From: Candidatus Nomurabacteria bacterium
Lineage (GTDB): Bacteria > Patescibacteriota > Minisyncoccia > Phycocordibacterales > UBA9973
Assembly (NCBI GenBank): GCA_016199805.1
Contig: JACQGC010000018.1
Location: 5,219-69,218, forward strand
Length of the DNA stretch: 64,000 nt
Direction: 5' to 3'
Of the stretch, positions 4,776 to 57,375 are shown piece by piece. Numbering within the stretch: position 1 is the stretch's first letter; every line of letters begins with the position of its first letter. A model generated the notes under the pieces. The model saw only the letters and a list, made by a program, of their open reading frames with translations. It was not told where the DNA came from and searched no databases. A program made the position numbers and the translations under genes.

Positions 4776-4802
4776 TTTGAATTCAGAATTACCACCCCTA
4801 AC

Positions 4803-4824
4803 CCCTCCTTAATCAAGGAGGGGA
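4803..4824. repeat. 22-bp perfect palindrome CCCCTCCTTAATCAAGGAGGGG (intergenic copy)
   Basis: Exact inverted symmetry. The identical 22-mer recurs at 38803-38824 inside a CDS. Confidence 0.7.
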
Positions 4825-4870
4825 GGAAAACAAAATTCCTATTTTTCAGTGTTTCTGTTATACTATTTTT

Positions 4871-7326: not shown

Positions 7327-7374
7327 CCCCACCTCAAATCCTCCCCTTACATTAATGTGAGGAAGTTTTCTAGT

Positions 7375-7445
7375 TGCGGGAGGCCGAATCGAACGGCCGT
7401 CTTAAGGTTATGAGCCTTACGAGATGCCTCTTCTCTATCCCGCTG
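7375..7445 (-). tRNA. tRNA-Met (anticodon CAU), initiator-like
   Basis: Reverse complement folds as AGCGGGA-U8-A-GAGA/UCUC D-stem, UAAGG/CCUUA anticodon stem with loop CUCAUAA, GGCCG/CGGCC T-stem with loop UUCGAUU, and discriminator A. The 1:72 A-A mismatch and A11:U24 resemble initiator features. Confidence 0.75.
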
Positions 7446-7551: not shown

Positions 7552-7624
7552 GTCGGCGTAGCTCAGGCAGTAGAGCATGGGACTCATAAGCCCAATGTCG
7601 CAAGTGCAAGTCTTGCCGCCGACA
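7552..7624 (+). tRNA. tRNA with anticodon CAU (elongator Met or lysidine-type Ile2)
   Basis: GUCGGCG/CGCCGAC acceptor, GCUC/GAGC D-stem, anticodon loop CUCAUAA, T-stem GCAAG/CUUGC with an unusual T-loop UGCAAGU; 73 nt. Confidence 0.75.
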
Positions 7625-7680
7625 CAAAGCAATATTTATCCACATTGTTGGTTAGTTGTATCTCCTGTCACGGGGTATAA

Positions 7681-8016
7681 TGTTTAGGTCGTGGTTATTT
7701 TGATGGAGATGGTAACGTATGGTCAGGTTTAATGCATAAAGAAAGGAAAACAAAAAACTTTGTTATTTTCGTTGCATTCACTTCATGCTCATATGAGTTT
7801 CTGAATGAATTACAGAAGAGGCTTAATTTAGTCGGCATTGCCGGGGGTAGTATTTATAAGTCTAAAAAAAGAAAATTTTGCAGATTGCAATTCAGCACCT
7901 CCGGAGCTTTGAAATTGTATGATTTTATGTATAATAGGAAGGTAGAAGACTTTTTCGGCCTATTTTTAAATAGAAAGAAGAAAATCTTTGAAAAATTTAA
8001 TAGATTGCGGCTGTAG
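7681..8016 (+). pseudogene. LAGLIDADG homing-endonuclease-like ORF lacking a canonical start; its 3' end overlaps exon 1 of tRNA-Asp
   Basis: In-frame translation after the TAA at 7678 reads CLGRGYFDGDGNVWSGLMHKERKTKNFVIFVAFTSCSYEFLNELQKRLNLVGIAGGSIYKSKKRKFCRLQFSTSGALKLYDFMYNRKV... The GYFDGDG motif plus the downstream beta-strand pattern matches single-motif LAGLIDADG enzymes of the I-CreI type. The first ATG (7732) falls after the motif. The TAG stop lies within tRNA positions 8-10. Confidence 0.5.
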
Positions 8017-15518: not shown

Positions 15519-17150
15519 ATGAAAAATCCAAAATATATTTTTGTGGTGGGGGGAGTTATGTCCAGCGTAGGCAAGGGAATTGCGGCCTCCTCTATCGGAA
15601 AAATATTGCAGTCCCGCGGTTACCGGGTGGCCATTATGAAAGCGGATATGTACGTGAATATTGACGCGGGCACTATTCGCCCCGCCGAACACGGAGAAGT
15701 CTTTGTCGGCGAAGACGGCGTGGAAGCCGACCAGGACCTCGGAAACTATGAGCGTTTTACCGGCCAGACTAGCAAGAGGGTAAACTACATGACCACCGGG
15801 CAAATTTACCAGGAAGTCATCCGCCGTGAGCGAAACTTGGAATACGGCGGGGAAGATGTGGAAGTTTATCCGGATATTCCGAAAGAAATAATCAGGCGCA
15901 TCGAAGTCTGCCAGAAAGAAAATAAATCGGAAATCACGGTCATCGAATACGGTGGCACCGTCGGCGAGCATCAACTCTTTCCGTTTTTGGAAGCGACCAG
16001 AATGATGCGGTCAAAATTTCCCGGCGATGTTTTTGTCGTTTTGACGAGCTACCTGCCGACCCCGTCTCTTCTCGGAGAACAGAAATCAAAACCAACCCAG
16101 CGCGCCGTCTTGGATTTATATTCCGTCGGACTCAAGCCGGACTTTGTATTGTGCCGCGCCGACAAGCCAGCCACAGCTGACATCAAACGCACCATCAGCA
16201 ATGTCTGCAGTATTCCCGTGGAGAGAATAATCTCTGCGCCGGATGTTTACTCCATTTACGACGTGCCGGTTAATTTCGAAAATGAAAATTTTGGCAATAC
16301 TTTGCTCAAAACCATTGGCTTGCACCCGCGCGAGAGGGACTTGGCGGATTGGACGGCTTTGGCCAATAAAATAAAAAAGATAGATAAAGAAGTCACCATC
16401 GGTATCGTCGGTAAATATTTTAATTTTAAATCTTGTAAAGACACTTACATTTCCGTCATAGAATCCATCAATCACGCTTCTTGGGCGCAAGGTTACAAGC
16501 CAAAGATTCTTTGGTTGGATTCGGAAAAATACGAAAATAACCCGAAACTCTTGAGTGAGCTGGATGGTTTGGACGGCATCATCGTGCCGGGAGGCTTTGG
16601 CAACCGGGGAGTGGAAGGGATGATTTTAGCCGCCGATTACGCTCGCCGCAAAAAAATTCCATATTTCGGTTTGTGCCTGGGCGTGCAGATTTTGACTATC
16701 TCTTATGCCAGAAATGTTTTGAAATTGAAGGGCGCGAACTCTACGGAAATGAACGCGAATACACCGCACCCTGTCATCGCCACTATGGCCGACCAGATTG
16801 ATAAAATCAAAAATAAAAATTACGGCGGGTCTATGCGTCTGGGAGCTTATGCCTGCACCTTGGCCAAAGACACTGTCGCTTTTGGCGCTTACAAAACCGT
16901 GAACATTTCCGAACGTCACCGCCATCGATACGAAGTGAACACAAAATACGTAGCCGAATTGGAACAAGCCGGCTTGGTCTTCTCCGGCCGTTCTCCCGAC
17001 GGAGTACTCATGGAGATAGCCGAGCTACCAAAAAAAGTTCATCCGTTTTACCTGGGCACCCAATTTCATCCGGAATTCAAATCCCGCCCACTTTCCCCGC
17101 ACCCGCTCTTCTCCGCTTTCGTCAAAGCTTGCGTTGGCAAGCAGAAATAA
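15519..17150 (+). CDS. pyrG: CTP synthase
   Basis: 543 aa; IFVVGGVMSSVGKGIAASSIG N-terminus; C-terminal glutamine amidotransferase domain with GLCLGVQ and a His. Confidence 0.95.
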   Translation: MKNPKYIFVVGGVMSSVGKGIAASSIGKILQSRGYRVAIMKADMYVNIDAGTIRPAEHGEVFVGEDGVEADQDLGNYERFTGQTSKRVNYMTTGQIYQEVIRRERNLEYGGEDVEVYPDIPKEIIRRIEVCQKENKSEITVIEYGGTVGEHQLFPFLEATRMMRSKFPGDVFVVLTSYLPTPSLLGEQKSKPTQRAVLDLYSVGLKPDFVLCRADKPATADIKRTISNVCSIPVERIISAPDVYSIYDVPVNFENENFGNTLLKTIGLHPRERDLADWTALANKIKKIDKEVTIGIVGKYFNFKSCKDTYISVIESINHASWAQGYKPKILWLDSEKYENNPKLLSELDGLDGIIVPGGFGNRGVEGMILAADYARRKKIPYFGLCLGVQILTISYARNVLKLKGANSTEMNANTPHPVIATMADQIDKIKNKNYGGSMRLGAYACTLAKDTVAFGAYKTVNISERHRHRYEVNTKYVAELEQAGLVFSGRSPDGVLMEIAELPKKVHPFYLGTQFHPEFKSRPLSPHPLFSAFVKACVGKQK

Positions 17151-17167
17151 ATAGATTCAAAAATCCA

Positions 17168-17211
17168 TCCACCCCGTCTCGGAGTACCGAGCCACCCCTC
17201 AAGAGGGGAAT
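17168..17211. repeat. GC-rich palindromic element (contains CCCCTCAAGAGGGG), inverted copy of the 17612-17650 element
   Basis: ccaccccgtctcggagtaccgagccacccctcaagaggggaat. Its reverse complement resembles attcccctcttgaggggtggc...ggggtgga downstream of the DUF559 gene. Confidence 0.5.
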
Positions 17212-17228
17212 CATGCAATCCAAAATCC

Positions 17229-17624
17229 ATGTACCCATATTGGGATATTCCTAAAAATAAACTTTTAGCAGAAAGAACTAGAGATTTAAGAAAAGCTGGT
17301 AATTTGGCTGAGGTTTTGTTTTGGAAAATATTTAATGACAAAAAGAAATTAGGTTTTGATATAGATAGACAAGTAATTATAGGTCAATACATAGTAGATT
17401 TTTTAATTCCCGAACTTGGCTTAGTTTTTGAAATAGACGGCTCCAGCCACGATTCAAAAATAGAATATGATGCGGAAAGGGATGCTTTTATGAAAGACTT
17501 AAATTTGCAGGTGATTAGAATATCTGACTTAGAGGTGAAAAACAACTTAAGTAGCATTTACCACTTAGTGTTAGAGACAGTTGAAAAAAGAAAACAGGAG
17601 GTATTGGAATTATTCCCCTCTTGA
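17229..17624 (+). CDS. DUF559 endonuclease-domain protein (Vsr-like fold)
   Basis: RQVIIGQYIVDFLIPELGLVFEIDGSSHDSKIEYDAERDAFMKDLNLQVIRIS matches the DUF559 pattern. The last codons and the TGA stop lie inside the downstream palindromic repeat. Confidence 0.75.
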   Translation: MYPYWDIPKNKLLAERTRDLRKAGNLAEVLFWKIFNDKKKLGFDIDRQVIIGQYIVDFLIPELGLVFEIDGSSHDSKIEYDAERDAFMKDLNLQVIRISDLEVKNNLSSIYHLVLETVEKRKQEVLELFPS

Positions 17625-17650
17625 GGGGTGGCGCTTGCGCCGGGGTGGAT
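17612..17650. repeat. GC-rich palindromic element attCCCCTCTTGAGGGGtGGCGCTTGCGCCggggtgga
   Basis: Two nested hairpins (CCCCTC-TT-GAGGGG and GGCGC-TT-GCGCC). A nearly identical copy is at 19906-19944. Confidence 0.6.
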
Positions 17651-17718
17651 ATATTTTACTTCTTGACAACCCGCTTCCAATAAAATATACTTAGTCTACC
17701 TAACTATTAGGTAGACAT

Positions 17719-18141
17719 ATGATACATACACATGCTAAATCAAGTTTGGGGGATTTAATTCTAATATTACGAAGGAAAATCATGGAAAGCCTGAAGGCGG
17801 CCGGTTTTGAACATGAGCTTACTTTTTCACAAGTAGAGGTTCTTCATTTTGTCGGTCCGGAAGGCAAGGAAACCATGAAGAGTATTGCCGATTTTCTCAA
17901 AATTACTCCGCCTTCCGCCACGGAGATTGTGGCCGAGATGGAAAAGAAAGGTTTGGTTAAAAGGACCAGCGACGAAAGGGACAGAAGAGTGGTTTTCATC
18001 GTTCTGTCGCCCTTGGCCAAAAAGCTTTTTATTTCACTGCACAAACGCAAAGAATTCGTTTTAAAGAAAATATTTTCCAAATTAAGCAAAAAAGATCATG
18101 AAGAATTTGAACGCATTATTAGAATTTTAATAACTACATAA
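17719..18141 (+). CDS. MarR-family transcriptional regulator
   Basis: 140 aa with a winged-helix region (LTFSQVEVLHFV...MKSIADFLKITPPSATEIVAEMEKKGLVKR..DERDRR); first gene of an efflux operon. Confidence 0.8.
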   Translation: MIHTHAKSSLGDLILILRRKIMESLKAAGFEHELTFSQVEVLHFVGPEGKETMKSIADFLKITPPSATEIVAEMEKKGLVKRTSDERDRRVVFIVLSPLAKKLFISLHKRKEFVLKKIFSKLSKKDHEEFERIIRILITT

Positions 18142-19265: not shown

Positions 19266-19904
19266 ATGGAAGAAAATAAAGAAAAACAAAATATTTTTAG
19301 CAAACCTTGGGTTCAAAGTCTAACCGCATTTATAGTTATTTTCGGCGTGCTGGCCATATTTTTGTTTTGGCAGGCAAATAGAAACACGATTCTTGTTGAA
19401 AATTCCGACTTGGAAGCGCCTATTATAAATCTGACACCGTCAGCTCCCGGAGTCTTGAATGCGTTATATGTAAAAGAGGGAGATGTCGTGGCGGCCAATG
19501 CGCAGATTGCCTTGGTGGGTTCACAAATCATCTCCACCAAGGTTGCCGGTATCATTGCTAGCGCGCCAAATGTCCTCGGGTCATATTTTTCTCCAGGGCA
19601 AATGGTGGCTTCGCTTGTAAATACCGGAGAAATGAAAGCCGTCGGACAAATAGAAGAAACCAAAGGCTTGAGCGACTTGAAAATCGGACAGCGGGCTACA
19701 TTTATTGTAGATACTTTTCCGGGTAAAACTTATGACGGAATAGTGGACCAAATCAGCCCCGTCTCAAACGACAATGGCATTATCTTTTCCATTTCCGACC
19801 AACGCCCGGTCAAAAAATTTAATATAAAAGTGCGTTTCAATGTGTCCGACTATCCGGAGTTGAAAAGTGGCATGTCTGCAAAAATTACAGTTTATACTAA
19901 ATAA
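19266..19904 (+). CDS. HlyD-family secretion/adaptor protein (lipoyl plus beta-barrel part)
   Basis: TM, then VKEGDVVAANAQIALV, and C-terminal ATFIVDTFPGKTYDGIVDQISPV typical of the HlyD_3 barrel. Confidence 0.75.
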   Translation: MEENKEKQNIFSKPWVQSLTAFIVIFGVLAIFLFWQANRNTILVENSDLEAPIINLTPSAPGVLNALYVKEGDVVAANAQIALVGSQIISTKVAGIIASAPNVLGSYFSPGQMVASLVNTGEMKAVGQIEETKGLSDLKIGQRATFIVDTFPGKTYDGIVDQISPVSNDNGIIFSISDQRPVKKFNIKVRFNVSDYPELKSGMSAKITVYTK

Positions 19905-19905
19905 G

Positions 19906-19990
19906 ATTCCCCTCGTTGAGGGGTGGCGCTTGCGCCGGGGTGGAAATGCATCCACCTCCCCCTAAAGGGTACTCCTCAAGAGGAGAATAA
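19906..19990. repeat. cluster of GC-rich palindromic repeats between the adaptor and MFS genes
   Basis: attcccctcgttgaggggtggcgcttgcgccggggtgga (a copy of the 17612 element), then GGTGGAaatgcaTCCACC, then CTCCTCaaGAGGAG. Confidence 0.6.
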
Positions 19991-20003: not shown

Positions 20004-21491
20004 ATGGAAGAAGAAAATAAGGGTTCAAATTTGCGTTGGTGGATACTTTTGACCGTTATCATCGGGACTTTTTTGGGGCGTCTGGACGAGACCATTGTAA
20101 ACTTAGCCCTCCCAAAAATCATAAACGATTTTGGCATTACTGTTTCCGCGGCGAGTTGGATAGCGACTGCGTATATCTTGGCCAATACCGCTTTTGTTCC
20201 GATATGGGGTAAACTCGGAGACACTATCGGCCGGAAAAAAGTCTATCTTTGGGGTTTTAGTATTTTTATTTTTGGCTCAATTTTGGCGGGGCTATCATGG
20301 AACCTTCCATCTATGATTACTTTTCGTATCATCCAGTCCATCGCTAGCAGTGCGGACTATCCGACGGCTATGGCCATCTTGGCTGTCACCTTCAGACATG
20401 GCAAGGAGCGCGCGCAGGCACTCGGCATCTGGTCTTCTTCTTTCGCCGCGGCGATAGTTTTCGGCCCATTATTGGGAGGGCCACTTATCGACAATTTCGG
20501 CTGGCGCTCTGTTTTTATGATTAATATCCCAATCGGAATTTTGGGAATGTTTATGGCCGTAAGTTTCATAAATGAATCTCGTTCCGAAGTAAAAACCAGA
20601 TTCTTTGACTGGTGGGGTGCCATCACTTTGGGCGGAATGCTTTCCGCTTTGGTTTTGGTTTTGGACCAAGCTTCCATCTGGGGCTGGATGTCATTAAATA
20701 GCTCATTGTGCTATTTGGCCATTTTGGTTCTGCTCGGAGTATTTCTACGGATTGAGCAAAAAGTTCCAGAACCGATTGTGGATTTGAAATTCTTCAAAAT
20801 CCCGGCTTTTGTCAACGTGCTGGTAAACAATTTTATAGTTTTCATGGGTATGATGGGCGGTGTCTTTTTGATACCTATTTTCGCCCAAACTTTTCTCGGG
20901 TTCAACGCGACCCAATCCGGCTACCTATTTATTCCCATGGCAGCATCGTTGATGCTTGCTGCCCCTATCGGCGGGAGACTGATTGGAAAAGTGCAATCTC
21001 GGTTTATAATTTTTGCCAGTACCCTGACCGCCGCTCTCGGCATTTTTCTCTTGACCGGACTTGATCCAAAATCAGGAGCTTTAGCCATCGCCATACCGCT
21101 TTCTATCATGGCCTTTGGTATGGGTTTCGGTATGGCTCAACGCACCAATATTGTGGCCTCTGTGGTGCCGCAAAGCGAGATAGGCATCGCTTCATCCATT
21201 TTAGCATTGGTCCGGAACATAGCCGGCGCATTTGGAATCGCTATTTTTGCCACTATTGTAACCGCTAGAACCAAAACAAATGTTTCAATCATCAACAGTT
21301 TTAGTAGACTAAACAGCCATATACCACTTAATATAAAAACATTCATAGGTTTGATTGAGTTAAAAGCCCAAGTGTCGGCTTATGATTATGTTTTTTTGAC
21401 CGCAGCGCTCATAGTTTTTTTCGGCTCCTTTACCATTTTGTTTCTAAAACTAAAAAGCGAACGCACTGATATCAAAGTGCACGTGGAGTAG
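20004..21491 (+). CDS. MFS drug:H+ antiporter, DHA2/EmrB-like (14-TM type)
   Basis: LTVIIGTFLGRLDETIVNLALPKI..., WGKLGDTIGRKK, about 14 TM segments. The internal ATG at 20004 avoids the upstream repeat cluster. Confidence 0.85.
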   Translation: MEEENKGSNLRWWILLTVIIGTFLGRLDETIVNLALPKIINDFGITVSAASWIATAYILANTAFVPIWGKLGDTIGRKKVYLWGFSIFIFGSILAGLSWNLPSMITFRIIQSIASSADYPTAMAILAVTFRHGKERAQALGIWSSSFAAAIVFGPLLGGPLIDNFGWRSVFMINIPIGILGMFMAVSFINESRSEVKTRFFDWWGAITLGGMLSALVLVLDQASIWGWMSLNSSLCYLAILVLLGVFLRIEQKVPEPIVDLKFFKIPAFVNVLVNNFIVFMGMMGGVFLIPIFAQTFLGFNATQSGYLFIPMAASLMLAAPIGGRLIGKVQSRFIIFASTLTAALGIFLLTGLDPKSGALAIAIPLSIMAFGMGFGMAQRTNIVASVVPQSEIGIASSILALVRNIAGAFGIAIFATIVTARTKTNVSIINSFSRLNSHIPLNIKTFIGLIELKAQVSAYDYVFLTAALIVFFGSFTILFLKLKSERTDIKVHVE

Positions 21492-22181: not shown

Positions 22182-22252
22182 TACGGGATCTGCTAATGGT
22201 AGGCAAACGCTCTCTGAAAGCGTGAATCTTGGTTCGAATCCAAGTCCCGTAG
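22182..22252 (+). tRNA. tRNA-Gln (anticodon CUG)
   Basis: UACGGGA/UCCCGUA acceptor with U1:A72 and G73 as in bacterial tRNA-Gln, anticodon stem ACGCU/AGCGU with loop CUCUGAA, T-arm CUUGG-UUCGAAU-CCAAG. Confidence 0.8.
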
Positions 22253-22253
22253 C
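22236..22253 (+). repeat. 18-bp direct repeat gaatccaagtcccgtagc (left copy, the tRNA-Gln 3' end)
   Basis: Identical 18-mer at 22611-22628; together they bound the GIY-YIG insertion. Confidence 0.8.
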
Positions 22254-22288: not shown

Positions 22289-22570
22289 ATGGAAAAACAT
22301 TACGTATACATGCTTCTTTGCGACCAGAAAACTTTTTATATCGGTATTACTTTTGATATTCAGAAAAGGTTAGAAGAACACAAATCCAAGGAATCTTTTT
22401 TTACAAAAAAGTTTTCTGAAGTTAAACTTGTATATTGTGAGAAATATAAAAATAAAAACGAGGCTGCAAAAAGAGAACGACAATTAAAGGGTTGGAGTCG
22501 CAAAAAGAAGCAAATGTTGCTTAATGGAAAAATCGGAATAAACTGCATTGAGCTGGATGAAGTGCTGTAG
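22289..22570 (+). CDS. GIY-YIG nuclease-family protein (YhbQ/UPF0213-like)
   Basis: YVYMLLCDQKTFYIGITFDIQKRLEEH...R: the GIY-X10-YIG core with conserved Arg and Glu. Confidence 0.75.
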   Translation: MEKHYVYMLLCDQKTFYIGITFDIQKRLEEHKSKESFFTKKFSEVKLVYCEKYKNKNEAAKRERQLKGWSRKKKQMLLNGKIGINCIELDEVL

Positions 22571-24489: not shown

Positions 24490-24699
24490 ATGTATCTTGT
24501 TTACATTTTGGAATGCGCCGACAAGACTTTGTATGTGGGTTGCACAAACAACCTGGAGAAAAGATTAAATCAGCACAATAATCATAAATCCGGAGCCCAT
24601 TACACCAAAATCCGCCGCCCGGTGGTTTTGAAATATTTTGAGAAATATAGAACTCTAAAAAGGGGACGAGCTCGGGAACGGAAAGAAGTAAAAATTTAA
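24490..24699 (+). CDS. GIY-YIG nuclease-family protein (second copy, YhbQ-like)
   Basis: [30 protein letters not shown]...R. A palindromic hairpin follows at 24702-24724. Confidence 0.75.
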
Positions 24700-40096: not shown

Positions 40097-40516
40097 ATGC
40101 CCCATTTCAGCCATGGCGTAAATGGGGCAGTGTGGTATCATATATACATGAGCCCAAGATATAAAGGTATGCGAGTAAATGCTTTCGGTTTGCCAGCATT
40201 TAAAAATGGCAGGAAAAGCCGTGCAAAAACTGAAAACAGGAAAAAATCTTTTTATCATGTCACTTTTCTTTCACCTTTTAAAAAAGATTCTTCAAAGAAT
40301 TTGATTGTAATGTACGACATTCCACATTTACAGAAAAAGGAGCGGGATTGGTTTCGTCGGCAATTAATAAAATTTGATTATATAATGATTCAAAAAAGTG
40401 TTTGGGTTGGACCGTCTCCACTACCCAAAAATTTCTTAGACTACTTAAAAGAAATAAAAATAGGGGATAAGTTTAAAACCTTTACATTGGCAAAATCTTA
40501 TACAGAAAAACTTTAA
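40097..40516 (+). CDS. hypothetical small protein with a Cas2/VapD-like C-terminal half
   Basis: NLIVMYDIPHLQKKERDWFRRQLIKFDYIMIQKSVW...GDKFKTFTLA resembles the Cas2 pattern (hydrophobic strand-YD, ...R..R..L...G..IQ.SVF, ...D.V.I..L). The ORF start lies inside a palindrome, so the true start may be internal. Confidence 0.4.
   Translation: MPHFSHGVNGAVWYHIYMSPRYKGMRVNAFGLPAFKNGRKSRAKTENRKKSFYHVTFLSPFKKDSSKNLIVMYDIPHLQKKERDWFRRQLIKFDYIMIQKSVWVGPSPLPKNFLDYLKEIKIGDKFKTFTLAKSYTEKL
40098..40129. repeat. 32-bp palindrome TGCCCCATTTCAGCCATGGCGTAAATGGGGCA (near-perfect; upstream copy)
   Basis: Centred on CCATGG; differs from the downstream copy by a CA/AC swap. Confidence 0.75.
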
Positions 40517-42360: not shown

Positions 42361-42383
42361 CCTTTGGCTAGTGTACTGATTTT

Positions 42384-42406
42384 CCTCCCCCTAATGTAGG
42401 GGGAGG
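42384..42406. repeat. palindrome CCTCCCCCTA-ATG-TAGGGGGAGG
   Basis: 10-bp arms. Nearly identical element at 56997-57018 (CCTCCCCCTACGTAGGGGGAGG). Confidence 0.7.
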
Positions 42407-42441
42407 TTAGGTGGGGGTATAATTTAGTGCTGAGGTGAATT

Positions 42442-55066: not shown

Positions 55067-56727
55067 TTGCCGAAAATATTTCCGAGCAATCTCATAAACC
55101 AATTCTTTTTTGGAGTTTCCGTCTGCGGTACTTCGGGAGCTGGTGTGAGCGCATTTATTACTGATGCGGTGTTTTGAGTGCTGGGATTATTTGCGACATT
55201 CATTGATTTTGGTTTAGGGTTTTTTGTTGCGCTTATTTCCGGGATGGGGGCGCTTTTTACTTTTACTAGTGGGGTTTCCGTGACTGCTGGCATTTCCGGT
55301 TTTGTAAAACTTTGCATTACCTGGTTCCAGCTTTTGCCGGAAAGGGCAGAGGTTACATAGGCGGTTTCCCAGGTTTTATTGGTAACGCTTTCATTTTTTA
55401 CTCCGCCGTCCGTGTCTTGGATTGTTGCCAAATAATCAGATGGAGTATTGCCATTTTTTGCCCAATCTTCCGGTTTTTCATTCATGGCCAATATTCCTTC
55501 CAGTGCCCAAGCGGTGGAAGAAGCATTGTCATTCCAGCTACCGTCATCTTTTTGATTTTGTTTTAAGAAATCTTCAGCCTTAGTTAAAGCATTTGGTATC
55601 TTTTCCTCCCCTGACAAGGGGAGGGCAGGGAGGGGTTGTATTTTATTGAACATTGCCAGCGCCTCTATCGCCGCGCCGGTCATATCCACAGAACCATCCC
55701 AAGAACCGTTTGTGTTTTGCTCGCTCAAAACAAAGGAGATGTCAGCATTTATCATTTGGTCATTTTGTGTGTAACCGGCATTTTGCAGAACAATCAATGC
55801 AAAGATGTCGTCATTGTCTTGGTTTGCATCTCCGAATTGTTTGCCGTCGAAAGAATCGGTTATTTTTTTGATATAATTTTCGCCGTTGGTGTCGTATGGG
55901 TTGAGTCCGAGCGACATCAATGCCATAGCATGTCTTTCATAATCGGTTATATTTAAAGCTGTGATTTTTGAAATCCCAAAATATTTTATCAATTTCAATA
56001 CCTGCGCCTGATTGTTTCCGGAAGCCAGAGATAAAGCAGCCCAGTCGGTGTATAAATCGGAACCCCAAGACCCGTCGGCGTTTTGTTGTGCAATCAAAAA
56101 ATCGTAAGCTTTTTGTGTGTCAAAAGCTAGCTTGGCGGGTGGTGTAGCTGGGGCTGTTATCGTAGGTGAATCGGTAGTAGTGGGGTTTGTATATGTAATA
56201 AGCGGACCTCCGCCACTACTTACGGGGATTAATGAATTAATGTGAAGTATTACTTGGTCGCTTGCAGTGCTGCCAGGAGCCCAATTATCAATCTTAAAAA
56301 TTATCGTATCTTGCGCCACCACTGGCAGGGAAGAAATACCAAGCATAGAAAAATTATCTGGCGAAGTTCCATTTTTATATATTGCCCAATATTGGCTAGA
56401 TGGATCAGGCACAACGTCATTAATTGAGTCAATCTGTAATCCAAGACCCGGAAAATTTGAAAATTTTGCACCCAAAACCGAAGAGCCGTTTTTTGTTGCA
56501 GCATCAAATGCACAAATAGCTAGATAAGAACCCATAGAAGTTGTTTCTGGGTAACTATATACTACTCCATTCTTGTCGGTTACTGTACAGCTGGCTGGTA
56601 CATCTATCATTATGTCAATGTTTAGCGGTGCCGCATGCGCTGTGCCAAAAAAACCAAGAACCATAAAACCTAGCAACACTATTTTAAAAATTTGATTTTT
56701 CATATTTCCAGGAGACCATGTCCCCAA
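55063..56727 (-). CDS. secreted prenyltransferase/squalene-oxidase-repeat (alpha/alpha-toroid) protein; transcobalamin alpha-domain-like
   Basis: Signal peptide; repeated QxxDGSWG motifs (DGSWGSD, NGSWDGS, DGSWNDN) characteristic of PFTB/terpene-cyclase repeats. Confidence 0.7.
   Translation of the reverse strand: MGTWSPGNMKNQIFKIVLLGFMVLGFFGTAHAAPLNIDIMIDVPASCTVTDKNGVVYSYPETTSMGSYLAICAFDAATKNGSSVLGAKFSNFPGLGLQIDSINDVVPDPSSQYWAIYKNGTSPDNFSMLGISSLPVVAQDTIIFKIDNWAPGSTASDQVILHINSLIPVSSGGGPLITYTNPTTTDSPTITAPATPPAKLAFDTQKAYDFLIAQQNADGSWGSDLYTDWAALSLASGNNQAQVLKLIKYFGISKITALNITDYERHAMALMSLGLNPYDTNGENYIKKITDSFDGKQFGDANQDNDDIFALIVLQNAGYTQNDQMINADISFVLSEQNTNGSWDGSVDMTGAAIEALAMFNKIQPLPALPLSGEEKIPNALTKAEDFLKQNQKDDGSWNDNASSTAWALEGILAMNEKPEDWAKNGNTPSDYLATIQDTDGGVKNESVTNKTWETAYVTSALSGKSWNQVMQSFTKPEMPAVTETPLVKVKSAPIPEISATKNPKPKSMNVANNPSTQNTASVINALTPAPEVPQTETPKKNWFMRLLGNIFGN
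55605..55624. repeat. palindrome CCTCCCCTGACAAGGGGAGG inside the - strand CDS
   Basis: Same family as 139-240. Encodes PLSGEE in-frame. Confidence 0.6.
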
Positions 56728-57140: not shown

Positions 57141-57325
57141 CTGCCTTGCGGGCAGAATTGGGGAACCTTCACCCTGTCATTCGCGAATGACGGGGTTCAA
57201 ATAAAGAAGAAGGTTTATCCTGCTCGGGACTAATGAAATAATTGGTATTCGGACTTGTTCCCGACCTAAATCGAGACTTACCGTAGCGGCACTGTACTGG
57301 AATCTAACCAGTTTCCCCAATCACT
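57141..57325 (-). promoter_or_regulatory. probable cobalamin riboswitch (aptamer plus intrinsic terminator) upstream of the DUF4430 operon
   Basis: The - strand RNA reads GAUUGGGGAAACUGGUUAGAUUCCAGUACAGUGCCGCUACGGUAAG..., resembling the cobalamin-riboswitch core (AGGGAA, GGUGAAAUUCC, GCAGCGGUAAGG as in E. coli btuB). Its 3' end is CUGCCCGCAAGGCAG plus U7 immediately before the ATG. Confidence 0.55.
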
Positions 57326-57375
57326 TCTTTTGGTTTTTAAATGAACGTCTTTAGTATATACTGGTTTCATACGCT

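Follow-up and report, generated by a model that had tools for sequence, protein, structure and literature searches.

In a 64-kb window of Candidatus Nomurabacteria DNA (the whole stretch analysed, 64,000 nt), a small gene encoding a DUF559, Vsr-like nuclease is framed by inverted copies of a GC-rich double-hairpin repeat of ~45 nt, and gene and repeats together fill a discrete 512-nt segment between the stop codon of pyrG and the promoter of a MarR-type regulator gene. We propose, with a probability of roughly 0.5, that this segment is an insertion cassette and that its DUF559 gene is the protein-coding partner of a dispersed repeat family resembling the repetitive extragenic palindromic (REP) sequences. 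The copy in the window is an old, fixed and still intact cassette, which now starts at Met 17229. Its components, namely a Vsr-like nuclease, repeats similar to REP sequences or Rickettsia palindromic elements (RPEs) and polymorphism of the homing type, are known, and it is their combination that is new: in the literature searched, the coverage of which was incomplete, we found no description of repeat-framed DUF559 cassettes, of a link between DUF559 and dispersed repeats, or of in-frame insertion of this kind into restriction-modification (R-M) genes. The parts of the cassette and its two neighbours are the following, in window coordinates.

17151..17662, + strand: entire cassette as inserted, 512 nt; the pyrG stop codon (TAA, 17148-17150) precedes it and the -35 box of the MarR gene (TTGACA, 17663) follows it
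17151..17228, + strand: vestigial N-terminal extension of the DUF559 open reading frame (ORF), stop-free and in frame; ATA at 17151-17153 replaces the ancestral start
17160..17214, + strand: left repeat arm, forward orientation; box 1 is ATCCACCCC at 17167-17175
G17176..C17193, + strand: left-arm hairpin A; stem 17178-17182/17187-17191, loop AGTA, T.C mismatch 17177/17192
17195-17199/17204-17208, + strand: left-arm hairpin B, CCCCT pairing with AGGGG, followed by the tail AAT
17229..17624, + strand: DUF559/Vsr-like PD-(D/E)XK nuclease gene, 131 aa
17609..17657, - strand: right repeat arm, inverted orientation; hairpin B at 17615-17628
17631-17642, - strand: right-arm hairpin A, GGCGCTTGCGCC
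17642-17650, - strand: right-arm box 1, GGGGTGGAT
15519-17150: pyrG (CTP synthase), upstream neighbour of the DUF559 gene
17719-18141: MarR-type regulator gene, downstream neighbour of the DUF559 gene

Each arm consists, in order, of box 1 (ATCCACCCCG), a short, GC-rich and variable hairpin A, and the sequence CCACCCCTCAAGAGGGGAAT, in which a second CCACCCC box runs into hairpin B (CCCCT-CAAG-AGGGG) and its tail AAT. The 20-mer CCACCCCTCAAGAGGGGAAT has exactly two copies in the window, at 17192-17211 on the + strand and at 17612-17631 on the - strand, with zero expected by chance (100 dinucleotide-preserving shuffles). Box 1 and the 3' part are common to both arms, while the middle hairpin differs by compensatory changes (CTCGG-AGTA-CCGAG in the upstream arm versus GGCGC-TT-GCGCC in the downstream one); the architecture of the left arm is common to hundreds of repeat copies elsewhere. 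A preliminary description, made from the letters of the window, had placed the gene between inverted copies of one GC-rich palindromic repeat and had derived its final codons and TGA from that repeat. Both statements are confirmed, the first by the Pfam match given below, the 20-mer and the extent of the inverted repeat (17160-17214/17609-17657), and the second by the end of the ORF, TTC CCC TCT TGA (17613-17624), which reads F-P-S-stop and sits within the downstream arm. The gene has a GC content of 30-31% compared with ~43-49% in its surroundings, and over 24 loci DUF559 genes lie 5-16 GC points below their flanks. Folding the arms as single sequences gave nothing striking (z-scores -0.6 to -2.1), and a simple intrinsic-terminator scan predicted no terminator on the + strand at the right repeat. 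An independent assembly, a Logan contig of SRR12113408 (L001), matches the window identically over 11.6-17.6 kb and breaks off 4 nt past the DUF559 stop codon, within the right repeat, where a repeat with many copies in that sample would be expected to interrupt the assembly.

The 131-aa product matches Pfam DUF559 (PF04480) over profile positions 4-108 of 109 (E=7.9e-22, 77.6 bits against a gathering cutoff of 20.6) and has more than 300 homologs at ~70-87% identity, chiefly in Paceibacteria and Nomurabacteria metagenome bins. In an alignment of 26 homologs D57, E68, D70 and H74 are invariant, the motif D ... E-x-D-G-x-x-H being present, and the C terminus F-P-S-stop recurs in 25 of the 26 (FRS in the remaining one). 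By sequence, the nearest protein of solved structure is 3hrl, which also belongs to DUF559 (E=3.9e-8) and whose VDF and EADGGQH segments align with the VDF and E-x-D-G-x-x-H motifs of the window protein. An AlphaFold2 model (predicted local distance difference test score of 80.8, first 12 N-terminal residues disordered) displays the restriction-endonuclease-like α/β fold of 3hrl, Vsr and I-Bth0305I; the top Foldseek match is again 3hrl (E=3e-5, template-modelling score of 0.91 normalised on the target), followed by I-Bth0305I (3r3p, E=6e-4), PvuRts1I/AbaSI and Vsr (1cw0, E=2e-2). The gene is under strong purifying selection: the ratio of nonsynonymous to synonymous substitution rates (dN/dS) has a pairwise median of ~0.11, indicating that the nuclease is kept by selection, and the synonymous divergence (dS) of ~0.9-2 across copies indicates that these are not recent. 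The invariant residues, the Vsr-like fold of the model and the low dN/dS suggest that the nuclease is probably active. PADLOC, NCBIfam and PHROGs returned weak or generic matches only.

Since some sources name homologs 'very-short-patch-repair endonuclease' and the fold is related to that of Vsr, the protein could be thought a canonical enzyme of this kind, repairing T:G mismatches that arise from deamination of 5-methylcytosine. However, Pfam Vsr (PF03852) is not among the matches of the protein, which comprise only DUF559 and a weak MTES_1575, and Vsr is a distant structural match relative to 3hrl and I-Bth0305I. No cytosine methyltransferase gene lies nearby either, the neighbours being pyrG, MarR, HlyD-like and MFS genes, and we regard this role as highly improbable.

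The repeats that frame the gene extend well beyond it. In a sample composed of the window and 81 DUF559 loci from a species-representative genome collection (905 kb examined), repeat matches were found at 78 of 82 DUF559 loci, and 176 of 220 matches to a generalised repeat pattern lie no more than 150 nt from the DUF559 domain, a domain that makes up only a few percent of the sequence examined. The association spans at least 10 phylum-level groups, and tandem extra repeat copies gather beside DUF559. An unbiased scan of metagenome contigs with the exact 20-mer CCACCCCTCAAGAGGGGAAT gave at least 139 matches on at least 120 stretches. Among the matches listed, 75 clearly stand alone, having no DUF559 nearby and a flank of at least 700 nt to either side, and 11 of the 139 listed lie within 300 nt of DUF559; solo copies account for ~87% of those with sufficient flank. 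An inverted partner, typically a variant copy referred to here as type 2, occurs within 75 nt of 53 of the 116 complete elements of the standard type 1 (46%) among these listed matches, and 20 of the 116 (17%) reside in ORFs that run on for at least 60 codons in both directions. The flanks are thus not private to the gene, as their first description together with it might imply, but are members of a dispersed, mostly solo REP-like family. The gene is nearly always framed by the repeat and the repeat mostly stands alone, which is the relation that links REP sequences to their REP-associated tyrosine transposases (RAYTs), or autonomous elements to derivatives of the miniature inverted-repeat transposable element (MITE) kind. 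The window itself holds a gene-free doublet.

19906..19945, - strand: solo repeat of type 1, hairpin A as in the right arm (GGCGCAAGCGCC); first half of the inverted doublet
19950..19988, + strand: type-2 repeat variant, ATCCACCTCC-CCCTAAAGGG-TACTCCTCAAGAGGAGAAT; second half of the doublet

This doublet, of an arrangement (type 2 with type 1) common among the metagenome copies, takes up the space between a HlyD-like ORF, with its stop codon at 19904, and an MFS gene, with its ATG at 20004. It is absent at the same junction in three relatives: one (L205) has no spacer at all, and in each of the other two (L203 and L209) an unrelated palindrome of a different kind is found there. Such varied contents indicate that intergenic junctions in this lineage repeatedly gain palindromic inserts. 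Solo repeats were also seen in frame inside coding sequences (L096 at ~2237, L106 at ~10923 on the - strand, L111, L135 and L136), with a purD-like gene, assigned by eye from the translated flank, and type IX secretion system (T9SS)-type C-terminal sorting domains as hosts.

An alternative reading is that the repeats are mobilised by some other enzyme and land preferentially beside or within DUF559 genes, or that DUF559 is captured cargo, the nuclease being a passenger or a target in either case. Repeats do insert alone, both in intergenic sites and in ORFs (a doublet in the HsdR protein of locus L062, the purD-like gene, T9SS coding sequences and window 19906-19988), their extra copies accumulate in tandem next to DUF559, and within a single cassette the two arms often differ in hairpin A. 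Yet no other candidate enzyme is consistently linked to them, the HsdR site described below is either empty or holds a full cassette, the association in at least 10 phylum-level groups involves clade-matched repeat variants, and the nuclease residues are conserved. Taken together, these observations make a passenger or target role for DUF559 unlikely.

The sequence of hairpin A is highly diverse, with 107 different sequences among 214 type-1 copies, and its pairing is conserved. Covariation was assessed in two gap-free length classes comprising 31 and 25 distinct hairpin-A sequences, where standard pairs occupy 91.4% and 86.0% of cells, respectively; pairing falls to 13-49% when the 3' partners are slid by 1-3 columns. 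Double-change cells number 40 and 68, and a covariation score as high as that observed is attained by 0 of 500 shuffles. There are only few cells of the G-U type, and their near absence argues for a hairpin at the DNA level rather than an RNA structure, so that hairpin A is probably conserved as a structure in DNA. The gap-free classes were used instead of a global alignment because MAFFT misaligned the variable hairpin A of 48 elements, and RNAalifold then detected no more than the base of hairpin B. The stem extension of hairpin B varies in a compensatory manner as well, by host clade.

TCAAGA: Paceibacteria, Brocadiaceae, Ignavibacteria, Hyphomicrobiales, Gracilibacteria
TCC..GGA: Bacteroidota
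TTC..GAA: Methylotenera, Gallionellaceae
TCT..AGA: Cloacimonadota, Nitrospirota

The repeats were unmatched in Rfam, both in a search of the whole window at the gathering threshold and in one of 17100-17720 at E≤10, and the 'Pedo-repair' motif did not match them. A pairing scheme involving all three of box 1, box 2 and the 3' GGGG was considered and rejected, its register being ambiguous and the association being explained by common descent.

Comparison of the pyrG regions of the closest relatives, whose pyrG products are 95 (L203), 93, 92 and 89% identical to that of the window in amino acids, reveals a polymorphic insertion. Homology among the window, L203, L205 and L209 ends at the pyrG stop codon and resumes at TTGACA, which delimits the insert as 17151-17662, 512 nt. 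In one lineage (L205/L206) the site is empty, with two bases (TAA-tc-TTGACA) between the pyrG stop codon and the MarR promoter, TTGACA-17-TATACT. A second (L203/L204) has ~106 nt of a different GC-rich repeat doublet and no DUF559 gene, a third (L207/L208) has two unrelated genes instead of the cassette, and a fourth (L209/L210) carries an orthologous DUF559 cassette with the same right arm as in the window. The cassette is therefore missing in three related lineages and present in one. Since the five genomes are roughly equally diverged, their pyrG genes being 80-85% identical in nucleotides, this pattern needs several losses or more than one gain. Presence and absence at defined positions, as in free-standing homing endonuclease genes, are found both at the pyrG-MarR junction and in HsdR. 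The preliminary description had suggested looking for the unit in related genomes and for further DUF559 copies with the same flanks: many such copies were found, and in place of a gene and flanks conserved without polymorphism the relatives display both states. Its picture of a selfish element stands as far as insertion polymorphism is concerned; the gene is old and under strong purifying selection (dN/dS ~0.11, dS ~1-2), and is not a selfish gene that arrived recently or is decaying.

Between the window and the L209 copy the dS of DUF559 is 0.89, below the 1.5-2.9 of the flanking genes, a difference that may reflect AT-biased composition or later gene conversion. The doublet that occupies the junction in L203 (5434-5540) reads ACCTCACCCC..., TTCCCCCTCTCC..GGGGAGGGGGAAGGGGGTGAGGT, and repeats of its type also stand beside type-1 repeats in metagenome loci L118, L126 and L129. 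On the other side of the insertion point, at 17663-17716, the promoter-like site of the MarR gene (TTGACA-17-TATACT, 11 of 12 matches) precedes an inverted repeat with perfect 10-bp arms, GTCTACCTAA/TTAGGTAGAC, which is likely the MarR operator; the promoter hexamers and the central CCTAACTATTAGG are kept in four of four relatives, and the outer bases of the palindrome vary. The cassette is placed exactly upstream of promoter and putative operator and leaves both intact.

Outside the Paceibacteria, 38 of 62 loci have the DUF559 domain within a longer ORF that continues for at least 100 aa to either side of it, with an upstream part of up to ~1000 aa and a downstream part of up to ~850 aa. Of 15 such host ORFs scanned, 13 encode R-M proteins: Type ISP/IIG enzymes, in which DUF559 splits the Type_ISP_C domain, HsdR, HsdS, an HsdM-S fusion, Eco57I/TaqI-type enzymes and N6_N4 methyltransferases. 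Examples among L020-L081 are L035 3181-6984, L062 4915-8895 and L021 5215-7077. The usual order in bacteria outside the candidate phyla radiation (CPR) is inverted arm, DUF559, forward arm, the opposite of that in Paceibacteria. The HsdR protein of L062 is particularly informative, as it has many orthologs that are more than 90% identical over the aligned parts (~61% of the query) and that measure either 1078-1079 aa without the insert or 1212-1281 aa with it. The insertion is clean, between ...NASG and ENGDKRGGVVWHTQGSGKS, with repeat-encoded flanks (NSPPLEGWSQTGVV ... PPRPxGTPPxEGN), and one and the same codon position holds clearly different DUF559 alleles; the L062 protein additionally bears a solo in-frame repeat doublet elsewhere. 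The two forms of HsdR show directly that repeats and DUF559 behave as one block, which is gained, lost or exchanged in its entirety.

The window cassette retains a trace of translation through its own left arm. The frame stays open from the pyrG stop codon (17148-17150) across the upstream repeat to Met 17229, and would encode the peptide I-D-S-K-I-H-P-P-R-L-G-V-P-S-H-P-S-R-G-E-S-C-N-P-K-S. Most of the 26 aligned homologs are annotated with an N-terminal extension of 25-40 aa (..IHPPRLxxxSHPSRGE..WNPKSLYPYW), which is the translated upstream repeat, and at most Paceibacteria loci an ATG in the same frame stands 10-30 nt before the repeat, with a Leu or Ile at the position of Met1 of the window protein. 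The orthologous L209 cassette reads TAA-ATG (peptide MQNKIHPPRLAKASHPSRGESCNTKFMYPYW) where the window reads TAA-ATA, which indicates that the window copy has lost the ancestral start and uses the internal Met 17229 instead. Use of an internal Met after loss of the start is also seen in at least one other lineage (L211).

No further DUF559 locus adjoins pyrG or MarR. The closest homologs of the window protein (83-86% identity in amino acids) are located at other junctions, and the L209 copy, at the same site, is less close (81%). Four recurrent sites hold further Paceibacteria cassettes.

After rpoD: L214, L008, L009, L137
Between an AA_kinase gene and map: L212, L010, L011, L108
Between pilB and a response regulator gene: L211, L014, L017
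Before one further conserved gene: L002, L003, L005, L007, L124

A cassette usually starts 0-6 nt past the stop codon of a co-oriented upstream housekeeping gene. A distance tree unites the copies of the window, L209, L214, L212 and L211, which occupy four different sites, in a single clade, and copies from other lineages at these same sites fall elsewhere, so that grouping follows lineage and not site. Such a tree is compatible with movement among a limited number of sites or with concerted evolution, and not with plain vertical descent of five ancient paralogs. The rpoD, AA_kinase-map and pilB-response regulator sites and the 'MEQ' gene were sought in the window and none is present; empty versions of the other recurrent Paceibacteria sites were sought among the metagenome loci, where only occupied ones came to light.

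The orientation of the cassette relative to its flanking genes is constant in 11 of 11 Paceibacteria loci examined at four recurrent sites, and it is for this reason that we rejected a programmed inversion switch (phase variation), in which the inverted repeats would serve to flip DUF559 relative to an upstream promoter. Milman et al. 2023 (PMC9881135), who used inverted repeats to predict inversion targets, reported an enrichment of 'DUF559 domain-containing protein' among these (odds ratio 14.3), the one pertinent item that our literature searches yielded, and R-M genes, which are common hosts of the cassette, are classic inversion targets. However, the flanking inverted repeats by themselves explain that enrichment, which had no long-read follow-up there, and neither the window nor the L001 contig has a recombinase gene beside the cassette. 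Moreover, the two arms differ in hairpin A and flipping the in-frame versions would destroy the host ORF, all of which renders a switch very unlikely.

A further alternative is that DUF559 is an ordinary resident gene of the host, for example a repair or processing nuclease, and that the hairpins are generic REP-like elements (terminators, mRNA stabilisers or insulators) inherited alongside it, with polymorphism due to deletions only. In its favour, a few syntenic Paceibacteria sites recur, with constant orientation; selection is strong and divergence old (dN/dS ~0.11, dS ~1-2); the gene directly follows housekeeping genes, with which it could be co-transcribed; and most repeats are not beside DUF559. 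Left unexplained, however, are the in-frame units at many positions of unrelated R-M proteins, presence and absence in HsdR genes more than 90% identical, the divergent DUF559 alleles at one codon position, and the clustering of Paceibacteria copies by lineage and not by site; in addition, the downstream hairpin is no canonical intrinsic terminator in a simple scan. On balance we find a resident gene with bystander hairpins rather unlikely.

The insertion-cassette reading suggests a possible course of events. The nuclease would recognise and cut the conserved CCACCCC boxes or the hairpins, in duplex form or extruded as DNA hairpins. The break would then be repaired by host recombination, with the repeats serving as portable homology, and in a homing-like manner such repair would lead to a further copy of the cassette, to its replacement or to its loss. 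The cassette of streamlined CPR genomes lies directly behind the stop codon of a housekeeping gene, is probably co-transcribed with it and ends at the repeat-supplied TGA; in other phyla the unit is read through in frame within host genes.

Several points weigh against the cassette reading. The structure of the cassette, its linkage to the repeats across the family, the polymorphism, the in-frame units, the purifying selection and the conserved DNA-level hairpins are observed; that the nuclease acts on the repeats, and the mode by which cassettes move, are elements that we infer. To our knowledge, a lone PD-(D/E)XK nuclease is incapable of transposition chemistry, so that mobility must, as a conjecture, rely on host recombination. 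No target-site duplication is apparent at TAA...TTGACA when the window is compared with L205, and no intermediate 'empty doublet' was found at the pyrG-MarR junction among the relatives compared. No homolog was found in the phage collection searched, and matches in the plasmid collection are only distant (30-40% identity); one repeat match was obtained in IMG/VR. The whole window holds four repeat copies in all. Finally, old copies (dS ~0.9-2) at a few recurrent Paceibacteria junctions also fit vertical inheritance with losses.

Among known systems, REP sequences and REPINs with their RAYTs offer a close parallel. In both cases one small nuclease-type gene lies between inverted short GC-rich palindromic repeats, the repeat is dispersed, mostly gene-free and often arranged in inverted doublets, a variable but structurally conserved stem stands beside invariant short motifs, and the gene is under purifying selection. 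However, the protein is here a Vsr-like PD-(D/E)XK nuclease and not a transposase of the HUH/Y1 (IS200/IS605-like) type, so that the pair may work like REP/RAYT and yet is not a member of that class. Further differences are that the repeat has two hairpins and two CCACCCC boxes, that the cassette is found at several sites and also inside ORFs, and that the family occurs in many phyla including the CPR; the biochemical link between protein and repeat is here a proposed one. RPEs are likewise short palindromic repeats tolerated in frame in conserved genes and translated as an extra peptide; unlike these, some of the present repeats carry a nuclease gene between copies, and the family consists of GC-rich double hairpins and is spread across phyla instead of being confined to one genus.

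Homing endonucleases of the Vsr-like/EDxHD group (I-Bth0305I, PMC3239194; 'fractured genes', PMC2677866) belong to the same nuclease superfamily and resemble the cassette in their presence or absence at defined positions, their sporadic distribution and their free-standing or embedded state. The cassette, in contrast, involves no intron, intein or split intein, its gene is framed by inverted hairpin repeats and often read through, and the identity of the window protein to I-Bth0305I is low (14-16% in structural alignment). As in transposons with terminal inverted repeats and their MITEs, inverted repeats bracket one gene and gene-free doublets resemble internal-deletion derivatives; in other phyla, doublets of an inverted and a forward copy match the cassette with its inverted arm, DUF559 and forward arm. 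Unlike those transposons, the cassette has no DDE or other transposase domain, lacks a target-site duplication at the junction compared and has arms that differ in the middle hairpin. Other members of the DUF559 family (PDB 3hrl, NGO0050; the E. coli YcjD-type proteins, NCBIfam PRK09767) share the Pfam family, the fold and the VDF...E-x-D-G-x-x-H motif. The window protein nevertheless scores 51 bits on PRK09767 against an equivalog cutoff of 218, and a repeat-framed insertion context is not described for 3hrl or YcjD-type proteins in the literature searched.

A broader proposal, which we put forward tentatively and consider possible but somewhat less than probable, gives the DUF559 nucleases of this clade the role of mobilising a class of mobile DNA that crosses phyla, is made up of GC-rich double-hairpin repeats with CCACCCC boxes and, in the literature searched, is undescribed. 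The repeats would spread alone in the manner of REP sequences or RPEs, including in frame, and an inverted pair together with the nuclease would constitute an autonomous homing cassette. If this is true, such a cassette homes to intergenic junctions in the CPR and elsewhere enters R-M genes in frame without an intron or intein; DUF559 gains a function, and a PD-(D/E)XK analogue of REP/RAYT is defined. DUF559 is a very large family without assigned function, members of which are often automatically annotated as 'very-short-patch-repair endonuclease', and a nuclease acting on its own repeats offers a testable hypothesis for what the family does. The cassettes and their repeats account for the odd Pro/Gly/Ser/Arg-rich peptides (HPSRGE, PPLEGW and others) at the ends of many predicted proteins, for the flagging of DUF559 as an 'inversion target' by inverted-repeat predictors and for one source of length variation in defence genes. 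They also indicate that very compact CPR genomes still keep REP-like repeats together with a dedicated nuclease.

The preliminary description had further grouped the DUF559 gene with four other ORFs of the window as a hotspot of five nuclease genes. As one linked phenomenon this is not supported: the list amounts to an inventory for which no link beyond proximity was found, and no CCACCCC repeat is found at the GIY-YIG, Cas2-like or LAGLIDADG ORFs of the window. The individual assignments fared unevenly. Both GIY-YIG genes are supported by Pfam, which recovered them after motif regular expressions for GIY-YIG and LAGLIDADG had found nothing, whereas the Cas2-like ORF is better matched by another family and the LAGLIDADG-like one has no Pfam match.

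22289-22570: GIY-YIG ORF 1, Pfam E=7e-16; starts 36 nt past tRNA-Gln (22182-22253)
24490-24699: GIY-YIG ORF 2, Pfam E=1e-14; stand-alone and small, like ORF 1
40097-40516: 'Cas2-like' ORF, PaaX_M E=5e-12 versus CRISPR_Cas2 E=6.5e-7

PaaX_M is the Cas2-like middle domain of PaaX regulators, and from these scores the ORF at 40097-40516 probably encodes a regulator-type protein rather than a CRISPR nuclease. The ORF at 7732-8016, described as LAGLIDADG-like, gave no Pfam match at E<1e-3 and lies near two tRNA-Met genes (7373-7444 and 7552-7625). Simpler GC-rich repeats, composed of a CCACCCC-like box and one hairpin (CCCCTCC..GGAGGGG or CCTCCCC..GGGGAGG), occur at gene ends at 4790-4830 (+ strand), 42381-42425 (- strand) and 55601-55640 (- strand) and may be related to the double-hairpin family. 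A cobalamin riboswitch is located at 57223-57362 on the - strand (Rfam RF00174, 36.6 bits against a gathering score of 31.5).

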